Of a stretch of 4,891 nt of DNA, positions 1 through 4,891 are shown in pieces. Position numbers and translations under genes: made by a program. The number at the start of each line of letters is the position of its first letter. Position 1 is the stretch's first letter. The notes beneath the pieces are model-generated. The model ran no database searches and was not told where the DNA came from. It worked only from the letters and a program-made list of their open reading frames with translations. This stretch comes from a virus (lineage: Duplodnaviria > Heunggongvirae > Uroviricota > Caudoviricetes): IMG/VR virus record IMGVR_UViG_3300011831_000014; one strand, written 5' to 3'.

Positions 1-698
1 TTGAGATCAAAAAAGGGCTGGTTTCGATCCAAGTATACGAAGAAACAGCGGGGATCGGACCAGGAGAGCCCGTAGAAACGACAGGCGCACCATTGTCTGT
101 CGAACTAGCACCAGGTTTGTTGACTCAGATGTTTGATGGGATGACCGATGCGCTGGGTGATTTTGTCACGACAGGCAAGGCAAATTTTCGTTCTTTCGCT
201 ACTTCCGTGATTTCGGATCTTAGTCGAATAGCATTAAAGGCTTCAATTACTGGGATTTTCGACAGCATTAGTAACAGTTCTTCTGGGGGGATTTTAGGAA
301 CTATCGGGAGTGCTATTAGTAAATTTATTCCGAATGCAAAGGGCGGTGTTTATGAGTCTCCGTCATTGAGCACGTATTCGAACGGTATTTATGATTCCCC
401 GCAATTTTTTGCTTTTGCAAAAGGGGCTGGTGTTTTTGGTGAGGCTGGACCGGAAGCCATTATGCCATTAACACGAACTTCCGATGGTTCTCTTGGTGTC
501 AGAGCTATTAATAGTAAAAGTGGTAATGGAGGCGGAGATATTACCTATGCCCCTGTATACCAAATCACTATTCAAAATGACGGCCAGAATGGAGAGATTG
601 GCCCTCAGGCAATAAAAGCACTTATGGGGATGGTTGATCAGCGGGTGCAGGGCAATCTGTTAAATATGCGACGTGATGGGGGAATGTTAAGTGGCTAA
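1..698 (+). CDS. H: Tail tape-measure protein, C-terminal portion (5'-truncated by window start); lambda gpH-like but divergent
   Basis: Open reading frame is continuous from position 3 to TAA at 696-698 with no upstream stop; the 'M' at 93 in the ORF track is a TTG codon inside the frame, not a real start. Sits immediately upstream of M-L-K-I-J. C-terminal motif ...[16 protein letters not shown]...[10 protein letters not shown] resembles the lambda gpH C-terminus as I recall it (...NDGTNGQIGPAALKAV...MRDGGLFSG). AT-rich relative to downstream genes. Confidence 0.85.
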
Positions 699-1029
699 TA
701 CGGAAGAATTTCACTGGTTACCAGAGGATGGAATGAAAACAGAAAATAAACCATCGATAAAAACTGTAAGATTTGGCGATGGTTATGAGCAACGAAGTCC
801 AAATGGACTTAATCATTCTCTGCGCGTTTTCACCTGTGATTTCAAAGTTGAGGCGAATGAACGTGATTCATTTGAAAAATTTTTAGCCCGGCATGAAGGC
901 TATAAATCTTTTTTTTGGCGCCCGCCGGGTATTAACAGAAAAATCAGAGTGGTGTGTCGAACGTGGTCAGCGACAGAACATATCACCTATACCGATTTTT
1001 CGTGTCAGTTTGACGAAGTGGTGATCTGA
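691..1029 (+). CDS. M: Minor tail (tail-tip assembly) protein M, divergent lambda gpM homologue
   Basis: 112-codon ORF beginning at GTG 691, overlapping the H stop; alternative ATG start at 733 preceded by GAGGA. Conserved VRFGDGY...KSF.W.PP...E.VV block matches gpM as recalled; size about that of lambda gpM (109 aa). Stop TGA 1027-1029 overlaps the L start (TGATG). Confidence 0.85.
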
Positions 1030-1727
1030 TGCAGGACATACAACAGGAAACGCTGAATGAATGCATTCGTGCGGAGCAGTCGGCCAGCGTGGTGCTCTGG
1101 GAAATCGACCTGACCGAGGTAGGCGGGGATCGCTACTTTTTCTGTAATGAGCAGAACGAAAAAGGTGAGTCTGTCACCTGGCAGAGTCGGCAGTATCAGG
1201 CCTATCCCATTCAGGGGAGTGGATTTGAGATGAACGGCAAGGGCAGTGCTGCCCGTCCGACACTGACGGTCTCTAACCTGCACGGCATGGTCACCGGGAT
1301 GGCGGAAGACCTGCAGAGTCTGGTCGGCGGAACGGTGGTCCGGCGTAAGGTTTACGCCCGCTTTCTGGATGCGGTGAACTTCGTCAACGGAAACAGCGAA
1401 GCCGATCCGGAGCAGGAGGTGATCAGCCGCTGGCGCATCGAGCAGTGCAGCGAACTGAGCGCGGTCAGTGCCTCTTTTGTACTGTCCACGCCGACGGAAA
1501 CGGACGGTGCCGTTTTTCCGGGACGTATCATGCTGGCCAACACCTGCACCTGGACCTATCGCGGCGATGAGTGCGGTTATAGCGGTCCGGCGGTCGCGGA
1601 TGAATATGACCAGCCAACGTCCGATATCACGAAGGATAAATGTAGCAAATGCCTGAGCGGTTGTAAGTTCCGCAATAACGTCGGCAACTTTGGCGGCTTC
1701 CTTTCCATTAACAAACTTTCGCAGTAA
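1029..1727 (+). CDS. L: Minor tail protein L (tail-tip protein with C-terminal cysteine-rich Fe-S cluster domain)
   Basis: 232-aa ORF; translation [12 protein letters not shown]...NTCTWTYRGDECGYSG...KDKCSKCLSGCKF...FLSINKLSQ is near-identical to lambda gpL as recalled. ATG overlaps the M stop. Confidence 0.95.
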   Translation: MQDIQQETLNECIRAEQSASVVLWEIDLTEVGGDRYFFCNEQNEKGESVTWQSRQYQAYPIQGSGFEMNGKGSAARPTLTVSNLHGMVTGMAEDLQSLVGGTVVRRKVYARFLDAVNFVNGNSEADPEQEVISRWRIEQCSELSAVSASFVLSTPTETDGAVFPGRIMLANTCTWTYRGDECGYSGPAVADEYDQPTSDITKDKCSKCLSGCKFRNNVGNFGGFLSINKLSQ

Positions 1728-1732
1728 ATCCC

Positions 1733-2476
1733 ATGACACAGACAGAATCAGCGATTCTGGCGCACGCCCGGCGATGTGCGCCAGCGGAGTCGTGCGGCTT
1801 CGTGGTGAGAACGCCGGAGGAGGAAAGATATTTTCCCTGCGTGAATATCTCCGGTGAGCCGGAGGAGTATTTCCGGATGTCGCCGGAGGACTGGCTGAGT
1901 GCAGAAATGCAGGGAGAGATTGTGGCGCTGGTCCACAGCCACCCCGGTGGTCTGCCCTGGCTGAGTGAGGCCGACCGGCGGCTGCAGGTGCAGAGTGATT
2001 TGCCGTGGTGGCTGGTCTGCCGGGGGACGATTCATAAGTTCCGCTGTGTGCCGCATCTCACCGGGCGGCGCTTTGAGCACGGGGTAACGGACTGTTACAC
2101 GCTGTTCCGGGACGCTTACCATCTGGCGGGAATTGAGATGCCGGATTTTCATCGCGGGGATGACTGGTGGCGTAACGGTCAGAATCTCTATCTGGATAAT
2201 CTGGAGGCCACAGGGCTGTATCAGGTGCCGTTGTCATCAGCACAACCGGGCGATGTGCTGCTGTGCTGTTTTGGTTCATCGGTGCCGAATCATGCCGCCA
2301 TTTACTGTGGTGACGGCGAGCTGCTGCACCATATTCCTGAACAACTGAGCAAACGAGAGAGGTACACCGACAAATGGCAGCGACGCACACACTCCCTCTG
2401 GCGTCACCGGGCATGGCACGCATCTGCCTTTACGGGGATTTACAACGATTTGGCCGCCGCATCGACCTTCGAGTGA
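1733..2476 (+). CDS. K: Tail-tip assembly protein K (N-terminal MPN/JAB metalloprotease-like domain plus C-terminal NlpC/P60 cysteine peptidase domain)
   Basis: 247-aa ORF starting 5 nt after the L stop; near-identical to lambda gpK as recalled. JAMM motif H-x-H-x7-S-x2-D (HSHPGGLPWLSEAD) at nt 1934-1975; NlpC/P60-like Cys (DCYTLF, codon 2093-2095) and His (PNHAAIY, codon 2291-2293). Internal ATG at 1877 with upstream GGAGGAG would give a 199-aa form. Confidence 0.9.
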   Translation: MTQTESAILAHARRCAPAESCGFVVRTPEEERYFPCVNISGEPEEYFRMSPEDWLSAEMQGEIVALVHSHPGGLPWLSEADRRLQVQSDLPWWLVCRGTIHKFRCVPHLTGRRFEHGVTDCYTLFRDAYHLAGIEMPDFHRGDDWWRNGQNLYLDNLEATGLYQVPLSSAQPGDVLLCCFGSSVPNHAAIYCGDGELLHHIPEQLSKRERYTDKWQRRTHSLWRHRAWHASAFTGIYNDLAAASTFE

Positions 2477-3015
2477 AAACGGGGTCCGAAGCCATCCGGG
2501 CGCTGGCCATGCAGATCCCGGCGTTTCGTCAGAAACTGAGCGACGGCTGGTACCAGGTACGCATTGCCGGGCGTGATGCAGGTGAAACCGAATTGTCTGC
2601 CCGTCTTAATGAGCCGCTGGAAAATGGTGCCGTGATCCATATCGTGCCGCGTCTGGCAGGAGCCAAAAGTGGCGGTGTGTTTCAGGCTGTGCTGGGGGCG
2701 GCTGTTATGGCGGTTGCTATATGGATGCCGGGGGTAGGAATTATGGCGAGTAATCTGCTGTTTTCTCTCGGTGCCAGTATGACGCTTGGCGGTGTTGCAC
2801 AGATGCTGGCCCCTAAACCCAAAACCCCCCGCACACAGACAACGGATAACGGCAAACAGAACACCTATTTTTCTTCTCTGGATAACATGGTTGCCCAGGG
2901 CAATGTTCTGCCGGTTCTGTACGGTGAAATGCGCGTGGGGTCACGCGTGGTTTCTCAGGAGATCAGCACGGCAGACGAAGGGGATGGTGGTCAGGTTGTG
3001 GTGATTGGTCGCTGA
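2374..3015 (+). CDS. I: Tail-tip assembly protein I (N-terminal ubiquitin-like beta-grasp domain, Gly/Ala-rich hydrophobic segment, conserved C-terminus)
   Basis: 213-aa ORF; translation MAATHTLPLASPGMARICLYGDLQRFGRRIDLRV...NGKQNTYFSSLDNMVAQGNVLPVLYGEMRVGSRVVSQEISTADEGDGGQVVVIGR matches lambda gpI as recalled. Start overlaps the 3' end of K by 103 nt in a different frame, as in lambda. Confidence 0.93.
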   Translation: MAATHTLPLASPGMARICLYGDLQRFGRRIDLRVKTGSEAIRALAMQIPAFRQKLSDGWYQVRIAGRDAGETELSARLNEPLENGAVIHIVPRLAGAKSGGVFQAVLGAAVMAVAIWMPGVGIMASNLLFSLGASMTLGGVAQMLAPKPKTPRTQTTDNGKQNTYFSSLDNMVAQGNVLPVLYGEMRVGSRVVSQEISTADEGDGGQVVVIGR

Positions 3016-3030
3016 TGAAAAACGTTTATG

Positions 3031-3060
3031 TGAAACCGCCTCAGGGCGGTTTTGTCGTTT
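3031..3060 (+). terminator. Stem-loop (AAACCGCC-TCAG-GGCGGTTT) followed by a T-rich tract in the I-J spacer; possible weak intrinsic terminator, attenuator or mRNA-stability hairpin
   Basis: Perfect 8-bp inverted repeat 3033-3040 / 3045-3052 with 4-nt loop, GC-rich core CCGCC/GGCGG, followed by TTTTGTCGTTT. Located in the only sizeable non-coding gap in the window. Confidence 0.3.
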
Positions 3061-3062
3061 CT

Positions 3063-3066
3063 GGAG
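3063..3066 (+). promoter_or_regulatory. Shine-Dalgarno sequence for J
   Basis: GGAG 8 nt upstream of the J ATG at 3075; a second purine-rich GAGGA lies immediately adjacent to the ATG. Confidence 0.5.
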
Positions 3067-3074
3067 CGTGAGGA

Positions 3075-4891
3075 ATGGGTAAAGGCAGCAGTAAGGGGCA
3101 TACCCCGCGCGAAGCGAAGGACAACCTGAAATCATCCCAGATGCTGAGCGTGATAGACGCCATCAGCGAAGGGCCGGTTGAAGGTCCGGTGGACGGATTA
3201 AAAAGTGTGCTGCTGAACAGTACGCCAGTGCTGGACAGTGAGGGGAATACCAATATCTCCGGTGTCACGGTGGTTTTCCGGGCAGGTGAGCAGGAGCAGA
3301 CACCGCCGGAGGGATTTGAATCCTCCGGCTCCGAGACGGTGCTGGGTACGGAAGTGAAGTACGACACGCCGATTACCCGGACCATCACGTCGGCAAACAT
3401 CGACCGTCTGCGCTTTACCTTCGGTGTGCAGGCACTGGTGGAAACCACCTCAAAGGGGGACAGGAATCCGTCGGAAGTCCGCCTGCTGGTTCAGATACAG
3501 CGTAATGGTGGCTGGGTGACGGAAAAAGACATCACCATTAAAGGCAAATCCACCTCACAGTATCTAGCATCGGTGGTGGTGGGTAACCTGCCGCCGCGCC
3601 CGTTCAATATCCGGATGCGCAGGATGACGCCGGACAGCACCACAGACCAGCTGCAGAACAAAACGCTCTGGTCGTCATACACCGAAATCATCGATGTGAA
3701 ACAGTGCTACCCGAACACGGCACTGGTCGGCGTACAGGTGGATTCGGAGCAGTTCGGCAGCCAGCAGGTGAGCCGTAATTATCATCTGCGCGGGCGCATT
3801 CTGCAGGTGCCGTCGAACTATAACCCGCAGACGCGGCAATACAGCGGTATCTGGGACGGAACGTTTAAGCCAGCATACAGCAACAACATGGCCTGGTGTC
3901 TGTGGGATATGCTGACCCATCCGCGCTACGGCATGGGGAAACGTCTTGGTGCGGCGGATGTGGACAAATGGGCGCTGTATGTCATCGGCCAGTACTGCGA
4001 CCAGTCAGTGCCGGACGGCTTTGGCGGCACGGAGCCGCGCATCACCTGTAATGCGTACCTGACCACACAGCGCAAGGCGTGGGATGTGCTCAGTGATTTC
4101 TGCTCGGCGATGCGCTGTATGCCGGTATGGAACGGGCAGACGCTGACGTTCGTGCAGGACCGACCATCAGATAAGGTGTGGACCTATAACCGCAGTAATG
4201 TGGTGATGCCGGATGATGGTGCGCCGTTCCGCTACAGCTTCAGCGCCCTGAAGGACCGCCATAATGCCGTTGAGGTGAACTGGATTGACCCGAACAACGG
4301 CTGGGAGACGGCGACAGAGCTTGTTGAAGATACGCAGGCCATTGCCCGTTACGGTCGTAATGTCACGAAGATGGATGCCTTTGGCTGTACCAGCCGGGGG
4401 CAGGCACACCGCGCCGGGCTGTGGCTGATTAAAACAGAACTGCTGGAAACGCAGACCGTGGACTTCAGCGTGGGTGCCGAAGGGCTTCGCCATGTACCGG
4501 GCGATGTCATTGAAATCTGCGATGATGACTATGCCGGTATCAGCACCGGTGGTCGCGTGCTGGCGGTGAACAGCCAGACCCAGACGCTGACGCTCGACCG
4601 TGAAATCACGCTGCCATCCTCCGGTACCACGCTGATAAGCCTGGTTGACGGAAGTGGTAATCCGGTCAGCGTGGAGGTTCAGTCCGTCACCGACGGCGTG
4701 AAGGTGAAAGTGAGCCGTGTTCCTGACGGCGTTGCTGAATACAGCGTATGGGGGCTGAAGCTGCCGACGTTGCGCCAGCGCCTGTTCCGCTGCGTGAGTA
4801 TCCGTGAGAACGACGACGGCACGTATGCCATCACCGCCGTGCAGCATGTACCGGAAAAAGAAGCCATCGTGGATAACGGGGCGCACTTTGA
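3075..4891 (+). CDS. J: Tail tip / central tail fibre host-specificity protein J, N-terminal ~605 codons (3'-truncated by window end)
   Basis: ATG at 3075 opens a frame with no stop through the window end, which is why it is absent from the ORF track. Translation MGKGSSKGHTPREAKDNLKS...VLLNSTPVLDSEGNTNISGVTVVFRAGEQEQTPPEGFESSGSETVLGTEVKYDTPITRTI... matches lambda gpJ N-terminus as recalled. Confidence 0.95.
   Translation, partial: MGKGSSKGHTPREAKDNLKSSQMLSVIDAISEGPVEGPVDGLKSVLLNSTPVLDSEGNTNISGVTVVFRAGEQEQTPPEGFESSGSETVLGTEVKYDTPITRTITSANIDRLRFTFGVQALVETTSKGDRNPSEVRLLVQIQRNGGWVTEKDITIKGKSTSQYLASVVVGNLPPRPFNIRMRRMTPDSTTDQLQNKTLWSSYTEIIDVKQCYPNTALVGVQVDSEQFGSQQVSRNYHLRGRILQVPSNYNPQTRQYSGIWDGTFKPAYSNNMAWCLWDMLTHPRYGMGKRLGAADVDKWALYVIGQYCDQSVPDGFGGTEPRITCNAYLTTQRKAWDVLSDFCSAMRCMPVWNGQTLTFVQDRPSDKVWTYNRSNVVMPDDGAPFRYSFSALKDRHNAVEVNWIDPNNGWETATELVEDTQAIARYGRNVTKMDAFGCTSRGQAHRAGLWLIKTELLETQTVDFSVGAEGLRHVPGDVIEICDDDYAGISTGGRVLAVNSQTQTLTLDREITLPSSGTTLISLVDGSGNPVSVEVQSVTDGVKVKVSRVPDGVAEYSVWGLKLPTLRQRLFRCVSIRENDDGTYAITAVQHVPEKEAIVDNGAHF

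Follow-up and report, generated by a model that had tools for sequence, protein, structure and literature searches.

The 4,891-nucleotide stretch of viral DNA analysed here (the window) carries tail-tip genes of the lambdoid type; it opens with the 3' part of H and continues with M, L, K, I and the start of J (Table 1). K stands between L, recognized by Phage_tail_L, and I, recognized by Lambda_tail_I, which is the position of lambda gpK, the TAPK of Iyer, Burroughs and Aravind (2006), and the order M-L-K-I-J is the same in homologous annotated records. DNA identity of the K region to many lambda-like phages of E. coli is 94-98%, with PhiR49_1 as the best match (98.3%). M and the 3' part of H, on the other hand, belong to another module than in lambda, one that is richer in AT. 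M and L overlap as TGATG, and the I ORF overlaps the last 103 nt of K in a different frame, a stretch in which the variation among close relatives tracks the I frame. No sigma-70-like promoter was found within positions 1600-3200.

Table 1. Features of the tail-tip module in the window, with positions counted from the first nucleotide of the stretch
Feature	Position	Strand	Basis
M	691..1029	+	ORF
L, tail tip protein L, 232 aa	1029..1727	+	ORF; Pfam Phage_tail_L PF05100, 328.7 bits, residues 29-230
L-K spacer ATCCC, 5 nt, without Shine-Dalgarno sequence	1728..1732	+	sequence
Gene K, long form, 247 aa, 28.4 kDa; tail tip assembly protein, JAB/MPN+ then NlpC/P60	1733..2476	+	ORF, 744 nt
JAB/MPN+ (JAMM) metalloprotease domain, residues 3-104	1739..2044	+	Pfam Prok-JAB PF14464, 53.3 bits; Foldseek
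Codon 19 (GAG), Glu19 in ExCG, predicted JAMM general acid-base catalyst	1787..1789	+	alignment
Predicted RNA hairpin, GGAGG paired with UCCGG just 5' of ATG 1877	1849..1888	+	folding prediction
SD-like GGAGGAG inside K, codons P43-E44-E45	1861..1867	+	sequence; anti-SD dG -9.5 kcal/mol
Internal in-frame ATG, Met49; short form starts MSPEDWL	1877..1879	+	sequence
JAMM zinc-site motif H68-S-H70-x7-S78-x2-D81	1934..1975	+	alignment
NlpC/P60 cysteine peptidase domain, residues 111-224; Cys121, His187, His199	2063..2404	+	Pfam PF00877
I ORF	2374..3015	+	ORF; Pfam Lambda_tail_I
J start	from 3075	+	ORF list

Two candidate starts in the K reading frame

Where does K begin? The nearest in-frame stop 5' of ATG 1733 is a TAA at 1709-1711, and no start-type codon lies between the two, so that 1733 is the sole possible start of a long form. 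The stop codon of L is the TAA at 1725-1727. Upstream of ATG 1733 the calculated duplex with the anti-Shine-Dalgarno (anti-SD) sequence has a free energy of +0.7 kcal/mol, that is, there is no SD, as against -9.5 kcal/mol upstream of the in-frame ATG at 1877. Initiation at the latter, codon 49, would yield a protein of 199 residues and 22.9 kDa. An earlier reading of the window, made without database searches (the sequence-only reading), had described just this layout, with an ATG five nucleotides past the L stop that lacks an SD and an internal GGAGGAG followed by an in-frame ATG for a 199-residue product; its coordinates are correct throughout, and the duplex energies bear out what it says of the two SDs. 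It had also given 199 residues as the classical size of lambda gpK, and this is indeed the size of K in NC_001416 (14276..14875).

Domain architecture and predicted fold of K

In the long form, the Prok-JAB family (Pfam PF14464, gathering cut-off 25 bits) is matched over profile positions 3-112 of 114 with 53.3 bits; in the 199-residue form only positions 64-112 are left, and the score of 23.1 bits falls under the cut-off. The NlpC/P60 family (PF00877, cut-off 23 bits) is matched over its whole profile, positions 1-105 of 105, with 47.7 bits. The JAMM signature E-x(n)-H-S/T-H-x7-S-x2-D is complete in K, with E19, H68-S69-H70, S78 and D81, and its positions are kept in 52-55 of 55 aligned homologues: Glu19 is found in 54 of them, C21 in 53 and G22 in all 55, H68, H70 and D81 are invariant, and position 78 is serine or threonine throughout (55/55). 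The NlpC/P60 triad is likewise in place, C121 being present in 54 of the 55 sequences and H187 and H199 in every one. Within the JAMM motif, the residue equivalent to E19 is E22 in AfJAMM, where it is the proposed general acid-base catalyst, and E56 in Csn5, whose activity is abolished by its mutation (E56A) (PMC300881). Glu19 itself is encoded 5' of the internal ATG.

An AlphaFold2 model of K built on the 55-sequence alignment (pLDDT 97, pTM 0.91) shows that residues 1-48 supply one helix (3-15) and two strands (21-26 and 31-36) of the MPN fold. In Foldseek comparisons, the JAB half matches PfJAMM1 (5ld9/5lda) over 107-109 columns with a TM of 0.65-0.69 and an rmsd of 2.5-2.7; AMSH, Csn5 and Rpn11 are matched as well, and the C-terminal half matches the NlpC/P60 enzymes MepS and Acd33800. 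The closest solved relative by sequence, PDB 2kks_A, aligns to K residues 7-105, the alignment opening at residue 7 with the pairing of ILAHARRCAPAESCG with MLAHARQALPNEACG. Thus, K shares the full motif and the fold with the JAMM/MPN+ proteases AfJAMM, PfJAMM1, Rpn11, Csn5 and AMSH, but differs from them in being a minimal domain of ~105 residues fused to NlpC/P60. The sequence-only reading had argued that initiation at 1877 would deprive the MPN/JAB fold of its N-terminal ~48 residues and that the long form is the more plausible one for an active domain. Both arguments hold up: the short form loses the Pfam call together with helix 1 and strands 1 and 2, and the predicted catalytic E19, the fold and the Pfam match all need residues 1-48.

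Conservation and selection upstream of the internal ATG

An exhaustive HMMER search returned 2759 homologues of K. Those of full length (230-260 aa, 35-50% identity), the N-termini of which are automated gene calls, begin to align at residues 4-10 of the query and at residues 3-15 of their own sequence, and their N-termini thus coincide with that of the long form. In the alignment of 55 sequences, which are 33-58% identical to the window protein, the mean identity to it is 35% over residues 1-48 versus 38% over residues 49-104; G22 and N38 never vary, and conservation reaches at least 90% at P17, E19, C21 and F47.

Among closer relatives, ~110 fetched loci span the region and yield 58 distinct gap-free K alleles, a family that is shallow. 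Here dN/dS falls from 0.26 in codons 2-48 to 0.18 in codons 50-104 and 0.07 in the NlpC/P60 part, and 15 of the 23 variable sites in codons 2-48 fall at codon position 3. Indels in 1733-1876 are confined, among the ~110 loci, to the lambda reference and three indel-ridden assemblies. In the L-K spacer, 1-nt changes in length are common (4-5 nt, up to 10 nt in loci L027 and L113), as is expected of non-coding sequence. Judged by these substitutions, codons 2-48 are under purifying selection. The sequence-only reading had looked to amino acid conservation ahead of the internal Met, and to the balance of synonymous and non-synonymous change there, to tell the two forms apart; residues 1-48 proved to be conserved and constrained, and the long form stands.

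It is therefore exceedingly improbable that only the 199-residue form is real and that 1733-1876 is untranslated or a spurious extension of the ORF. Such a reading could appeal to NC_001416 and several other records that annotate K in this way, some with an explicit RBS, to the thousands of 199-residue entries produced by gene callers, and to the canonical SD at 1877 where 1733 has none. However, it is contradicted by the comparative sequence data: residues 1-48 are conserved down to 33% identity, catalytic glutamate included, they show the dN/dS of 0.26, the third-position bias and the freedom from indels described above, they are integral to the predicted fold, and without them the Pfam JAB call is lost. 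The lambda annotation, for its part, is explained by a missing base (see below). A start codon lying in frame between 1733 and 1877, such as GTG 1841 with a product of 211 residues, is scarcely credible either. An SD-like GGAGG lies upstream of it (dG -9.3), and it is the start used in GenBank KT232076 and JGI cluster P0040, but at ~17-21 nt this SD is too far away, the conserved segment HA..P.ExCG and strands 1 and 2 would be removed, and the homologues align from residues 4-10.

The L-K junction

The long form opens a few nucleotides past the L stop without an SD of its own, and this arrangement recurs in relatives. In Atlantibacter, Enterobacter and Pseudocitrobacter, the relatives of 47-50% identity in which the position of the L stop was determined, this stop and the K start overlap as TGATG, and the same TGATG stands at the K start of Erwinia, Pantoea, Hafnia, Rahnella and Phytobacter (47-50% identity). 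SD pairing at the K start of the relatives in this range of identity is weak, with a dG of -3.4 to -4.6. The L-K gap is 12 nt in Citrobacter, and three metagenomic relatives (35-41% identity) have spacings between -1 and +11 nt.

In the mechanism that we propose, ribosomes that have just terminated on L would reinitiate at ATG 1733, five bases on, and such termination-reinitiation coupling would explain why 1733 has no SD. The sequence-only reading had likewise taken the junction to be consistent with translational coupling; given the lack of an SD, the 5-nt gap and the recurrence of a tight L/K junction in relatives, we judge coupling probable, and it is most likely the way in which K is actually initiated. 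Coupled gene pairs of phage late operons (e.g., TGATG) provide the precedent for a start that is near a stop and lacks an SD. In contrast to coupled stop-start overlaps, the L/K junction of the window has a short spacer and no overlap.

The internal Shine-Dalgarno sequence and ATG

What, then, is the status of the internal site? The pattern GGAG-N4-11-ATG occurs four times in the window versus 5.6 +/- 2.4 times in shuffled sequences, so the internal SD-ATG is no more than chance gives. The five plus-strand genes contain 27 internal in-frame ATGs, of which two others equal it in their SD (2743, -9.9; 1907, -9.3). Every one of the 58 close alleles retains ATG49 and the GGAGG core. As 31% of third positions vary, however, invariance of the three synonymous sites in the SD has by our own estimate a p of ~0.33, and no excess synonymous conservation was found at the internal SD among these alleles. 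In the 55 homologues, position 49 is Ile in 39, Met in 7, Leu in 6, Val in 2 and Ala in 1; the Citrobacter homologues (75-78% identity) have Met49 but no SD (dG +0.4), and the homologues of 47-50% identity have Ile at this position and neither ATG nor SD. The pair of SD and ATG is thus confined to the close E. coli group, and start and SD are not conserved beyond coding need, as they would be in a nested internal start.

At the RNA level, the predicted fold of 1837-1916 has an MFE of -33.1 kcal/mol and a z-score of -3.5, with 0 of 200 shuffles as good, and the predicted mean unpaired probability at -18..+6 is 0.37 for ATG 1877 versus 0.77 for ATG 1733. Ribosomes coming from 1733 would melt the hairpin at 1849-1888.

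Nested in-frame starts are an established device of lambda, as in C/Nu3 and S107/S105, and the K gene of the window likewise has an internal ATG that is in frame and preceded by a good SD. Two products could accordingly be envisaged, the 247-residue protein from 1733 and a nested 199-residue isoform from 1877, either NlpC/P60-only or regulatory. The strong SD, with its pairing energy of -9.5 kcal/mol and a spacing of 9 nt, and the presence of SD core and ATG in 58/58 close alleles make some internal initiation at 1877 mechanistically plausible, and NlpC/P60-only versions of TAPK are reported from some prophages (PMC1779556). Even so, we consider a nested isoform unlikely, as Met49 is replaced by Ile, Leu, Val or Ala in 48 of the 55 homologues, Citrobacter has the Met without the SD and the relatives of 47-50% identity have neither, the invariance of the synonymous SD sites is not significant, equally strong SD-ATG pairs lie elsewhere inside genes of the window, and a predicted hairpin would sequester the internal site. 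The short form would moreover contain an unfoldable MPN half that lacks helix 1 and strands 1 and 2 of the AlphaFold2 model. Unlike the starts of C/Nu3 and S107/S105, that of K is conserved only in the close family, and it cuts through a domain instead of falling between domains. One distant homologue of 202 aa, P0247, whose match seemingly begins at about query residue 46, was considered as a natural short form and rejected, being the downstream half of a frameshift-split gene on a contig of 2x coverage.

That 1861-1879 is a genuine second start in the E. coli lambda-like lineage only, giving a 22.9-kDa NlpC/P60 isoform without a functional JAMM domain, is very unlikely. If it were so, weak L-K coupling, or the melting of the hairpin at 1849-1888 by ribosomes from upstream, would give rise to this isoform, and the ratio of the two K forms would tune tail-tip assembly. 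In the single-start reading that we prefer, GGAGGAG is the spelling of the Pro-Glu-Glu codons (in the close alleles, Pro-Glu followed by Glu, Ala or Asp) and Met49 falls where most relatives have Ile; for these reasons, the internal GGAGGAG and ATG are best read as incidental. The sequence-only reading had allowed for the production of both forms, an idea that finds no support in the comparison of homologues. A low-level internal product may be made, and nothing in the alignments indicates selection for one.

A base missing from the lambda reference

Compared with the window, phage 434 and PhiR49_1, the lambda reference NC_001416 has a single-base gap ~10 nt upstream of the 199-aa ATG. The long K ORF is therefore split in the reference, its upstream piece appearing as a 76-codon ORF that begins MTQTESAILAHARRCAPAESCGF. 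Five lambda or lambda-derived records, deposited independently of one another, have GGAGGCGTATTTCC in place of the GGAGGC-TATTTCC of the reference, namely lambda imm434 (OM418626), Lambda_AGU (LC730321, 48,503 bp), PV340536, KT232076 and DE3 (EU078592). With the G restored, lambda K has 247 codons, starts MTQTESAILAHARRCAPAESCGF and is as long as K of the window, whose GGAGGAG (E45) corresponds to GGAGGCG (A45) in lambda. Presumably it is this base that vendor sequence notes list as a G inserted at 14266 of lambda.

The reference allele is rare. In 5426 complete E. coli genomes, not one of the 7328 places that match has it, and it occurs in 4 of 122 phage records, two of which are the reference itself (J02459/NC_001416). 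The other two were rejected as independent support: OR474059 is marked 'UNVERIFIED', and OR974322, a chicken-swab 'isolate', has coordinates identical to those of the reference. The exact lambda K with the G was found in 17 fetched loci, 10 of which are contigs in unrelated bacterial assemblies, several at ~1x coverage; these 10 are evidently lambda DNA contamination. A programmed -1 frameshift as the cause of the split lambda K was likewise dismissed, since resequenced lambdas contain the extra G. On the strength of these records, the real lambda K ORF is of 247 codons too, and the 199 residues are the result of one base missing from the 1982 reference. The sequence-only reading was thus right about the size of the annotated lambda protein, but not in treating it as an alternative start on the same ORF, as the short annotation was forced by the omission of one nucleotide.

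Current annotation of K

The database record of K is divided. The 247-residue form is annotated by PGAP in E. coli genomes and in the records of phage 434 and PhiR49_1. The lambda imm434 record (OM418626) has the 199-residue start together with an RBS feature, although its long ORF is intact, and the 199-residue clusters P0052, P0055, P0058 and P0067 begin MSPEDWL or MAPEDWL. It is because of the internal SD that gene callers have repeated the truncation in thousands of database entries. A recent review still gives 199 residues for gpK (PMC7291167). Mass spectrometry of virions did not detect the protein, and cryo-EM did not resolve it (PMC10721106, PMC12617516); since it is absent from virions, virion proteomics does not help with its N-terminus.

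Discussion

What can be concluded about the K gene of this phage? The protein family is already known, and the question is an ordinary one of start-site annotation. The window shares with lambda the gene order M-L-K-I-J and the combination of JAB and NlpC/P60 domains in K, and across lambda-like phages the K-region DNA is 95-98% identical to that of the window. K almost certainly opens at its first ATG, 1733, and encodes a two-peptidase protein of 247 residues. We are highly confident in the joint reading of the evidence, in which K runs from 1733 to the TGA ending at 2476, its start is most likely coupled to L, the internal SD-ATG is incidental and the 199-residue form is a legacy of annotation. 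The apparent ambiguity of the start is thus an incidental SD-ATG compounded by a legacy error in the lambda reference. The value of the result lies in a clean start-site assignment and in a reason for the conflicting annotations, and not in a new biological mechanism.

Papers of 2003-2006 described the architecture of TAPK, JAB followed by NlpC/P60, and proposed that it acts on the ubiquitin-like protein I (PMC300881, PMC1779556), the product of the neighbouring gene I, which has a ubiquitin-like domain, being the candidate substrate (PMC1779556). The peptidase domains of K are probably active, and probably on protein I as proposed there. Papers of 2025-2026 still term the role and the location of gpK unknown or unclear (including PMC12617516), and among the assembly factors of the lambda tail tip it is the least understood. 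The 199-residue entry in NC_001416 lacks the catalytic glutamate of the JAMM motif as well as three elements of secondary structure in the MPN fold; work that proceeds from it therefore misses the metalloprotease half of the protein.

The lambda reference and truncated K entries

The lambda reference sequence (J02459/NC_001416) is without one G, at positions 966-967 of its locus in our set (L001; lambda ~14266), a site homologous to window 1867-1868. Every independently sequenced lambda that was examined has this base, as does every related prophage. Without it, K in the reference is split into two ORFs, one of 76 codons and the annotated one of 199 codons. The lost base lies inside a G/C-rich CCGGAGG/CUCCGG repeat. 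Such repeats encode Pro-Glu-Glu (codons 28-30 and again 43-45) and Pro-Glu-Asp (codons 51-53), and they make up a predicted stable RNA hairpin within K.

A metagenomic K homologue of 41% identity (locus L146, 1074-1809, on a contig of 2x coverage) is broken inside the JAB domain into ORFs of 59 aa and 202 aa. Its split resembles the artefact of the lambda reference and shows how truncated entries of this kind originate.

Contigs with a lambda-type K were also observed in assemblies labelled Neobacillus, Pseudoxanthomonas, Shewanella, Chromatium, Paenibacillus, Bradyrhizobium and others, the loci in question (L092-L103, L111-L125 and others) having been obtained from genome-contig matches. Ten contigs from these assemblies carry a K string identical to that of lambda, and the names of several contigs with a lambda-type K state a coverage of ~1x. 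Almost certainly, the lambda-type K of these assemblies represents lambda DNA contaminating the sequencing libraries.

Features of K, I and the I-J gap in the window
Feature	Position	Property	Remark
CCGGAGGA copies	1814, 1859, 1883		
Predicted RNA hairpin	1849-1888	z-score -3.5	within K
I start, upstream candidate	ATG 2374	anti-Shine-Dalgarno duplex energy -9.3 kcal/mol; K overlap 103 nt	equivalent ATG chosen in lambda and phage 434
I start, downstream candidate	GTG 2473	overlaps K stop as GTGA	chosen by PGAP and other records
G+C-rich hairpin	~3040-3060	AAACCGCC-TCAG-GGCGGTTTT, then T-rich run	in the I-J gap (I stop 3015, J start 3075)

The K/I overlap and neighbouring boundaries

As with K, the annotated starts of I conflict between records. 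Across 58 distinct gap-free K alleles of close relatives, the stretch 2393-2475 has 15 variable sites, 10 of them at I codon position 3 (position 2 in the K frame), and I residues 1-34 are identical in 53 alleles; the Pfam match to Lambda_tail_I spans I residues 14-97. Since the variation in the overlap thus sits mostly at I position 3, the I N-terminus is nearly invariant and the Pfam match begins at residue 14, these sequence comparisons favour the upstream start over the GTG. The K tail (residues 214-247) varies among the same alleles, with an apparent K-frame dN/dS of 22, which suggests that the final 34 residues of K are under weak constraint.

The hairpin in the I-J gap was not flagged by a simple terminator scan. 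The homologous site in phage 434 (OL657226) carries a terminator annotation. GC content is 42-46% across the 3' end of H and M (1-1030); near the M/L boundary it jumps, and the rest of the window (1030-4891) stands at 55-61%. This jump suggests a mosaic joint, at which a non-lambda H-M module was joined to a lambda-like L-K-I-J module.
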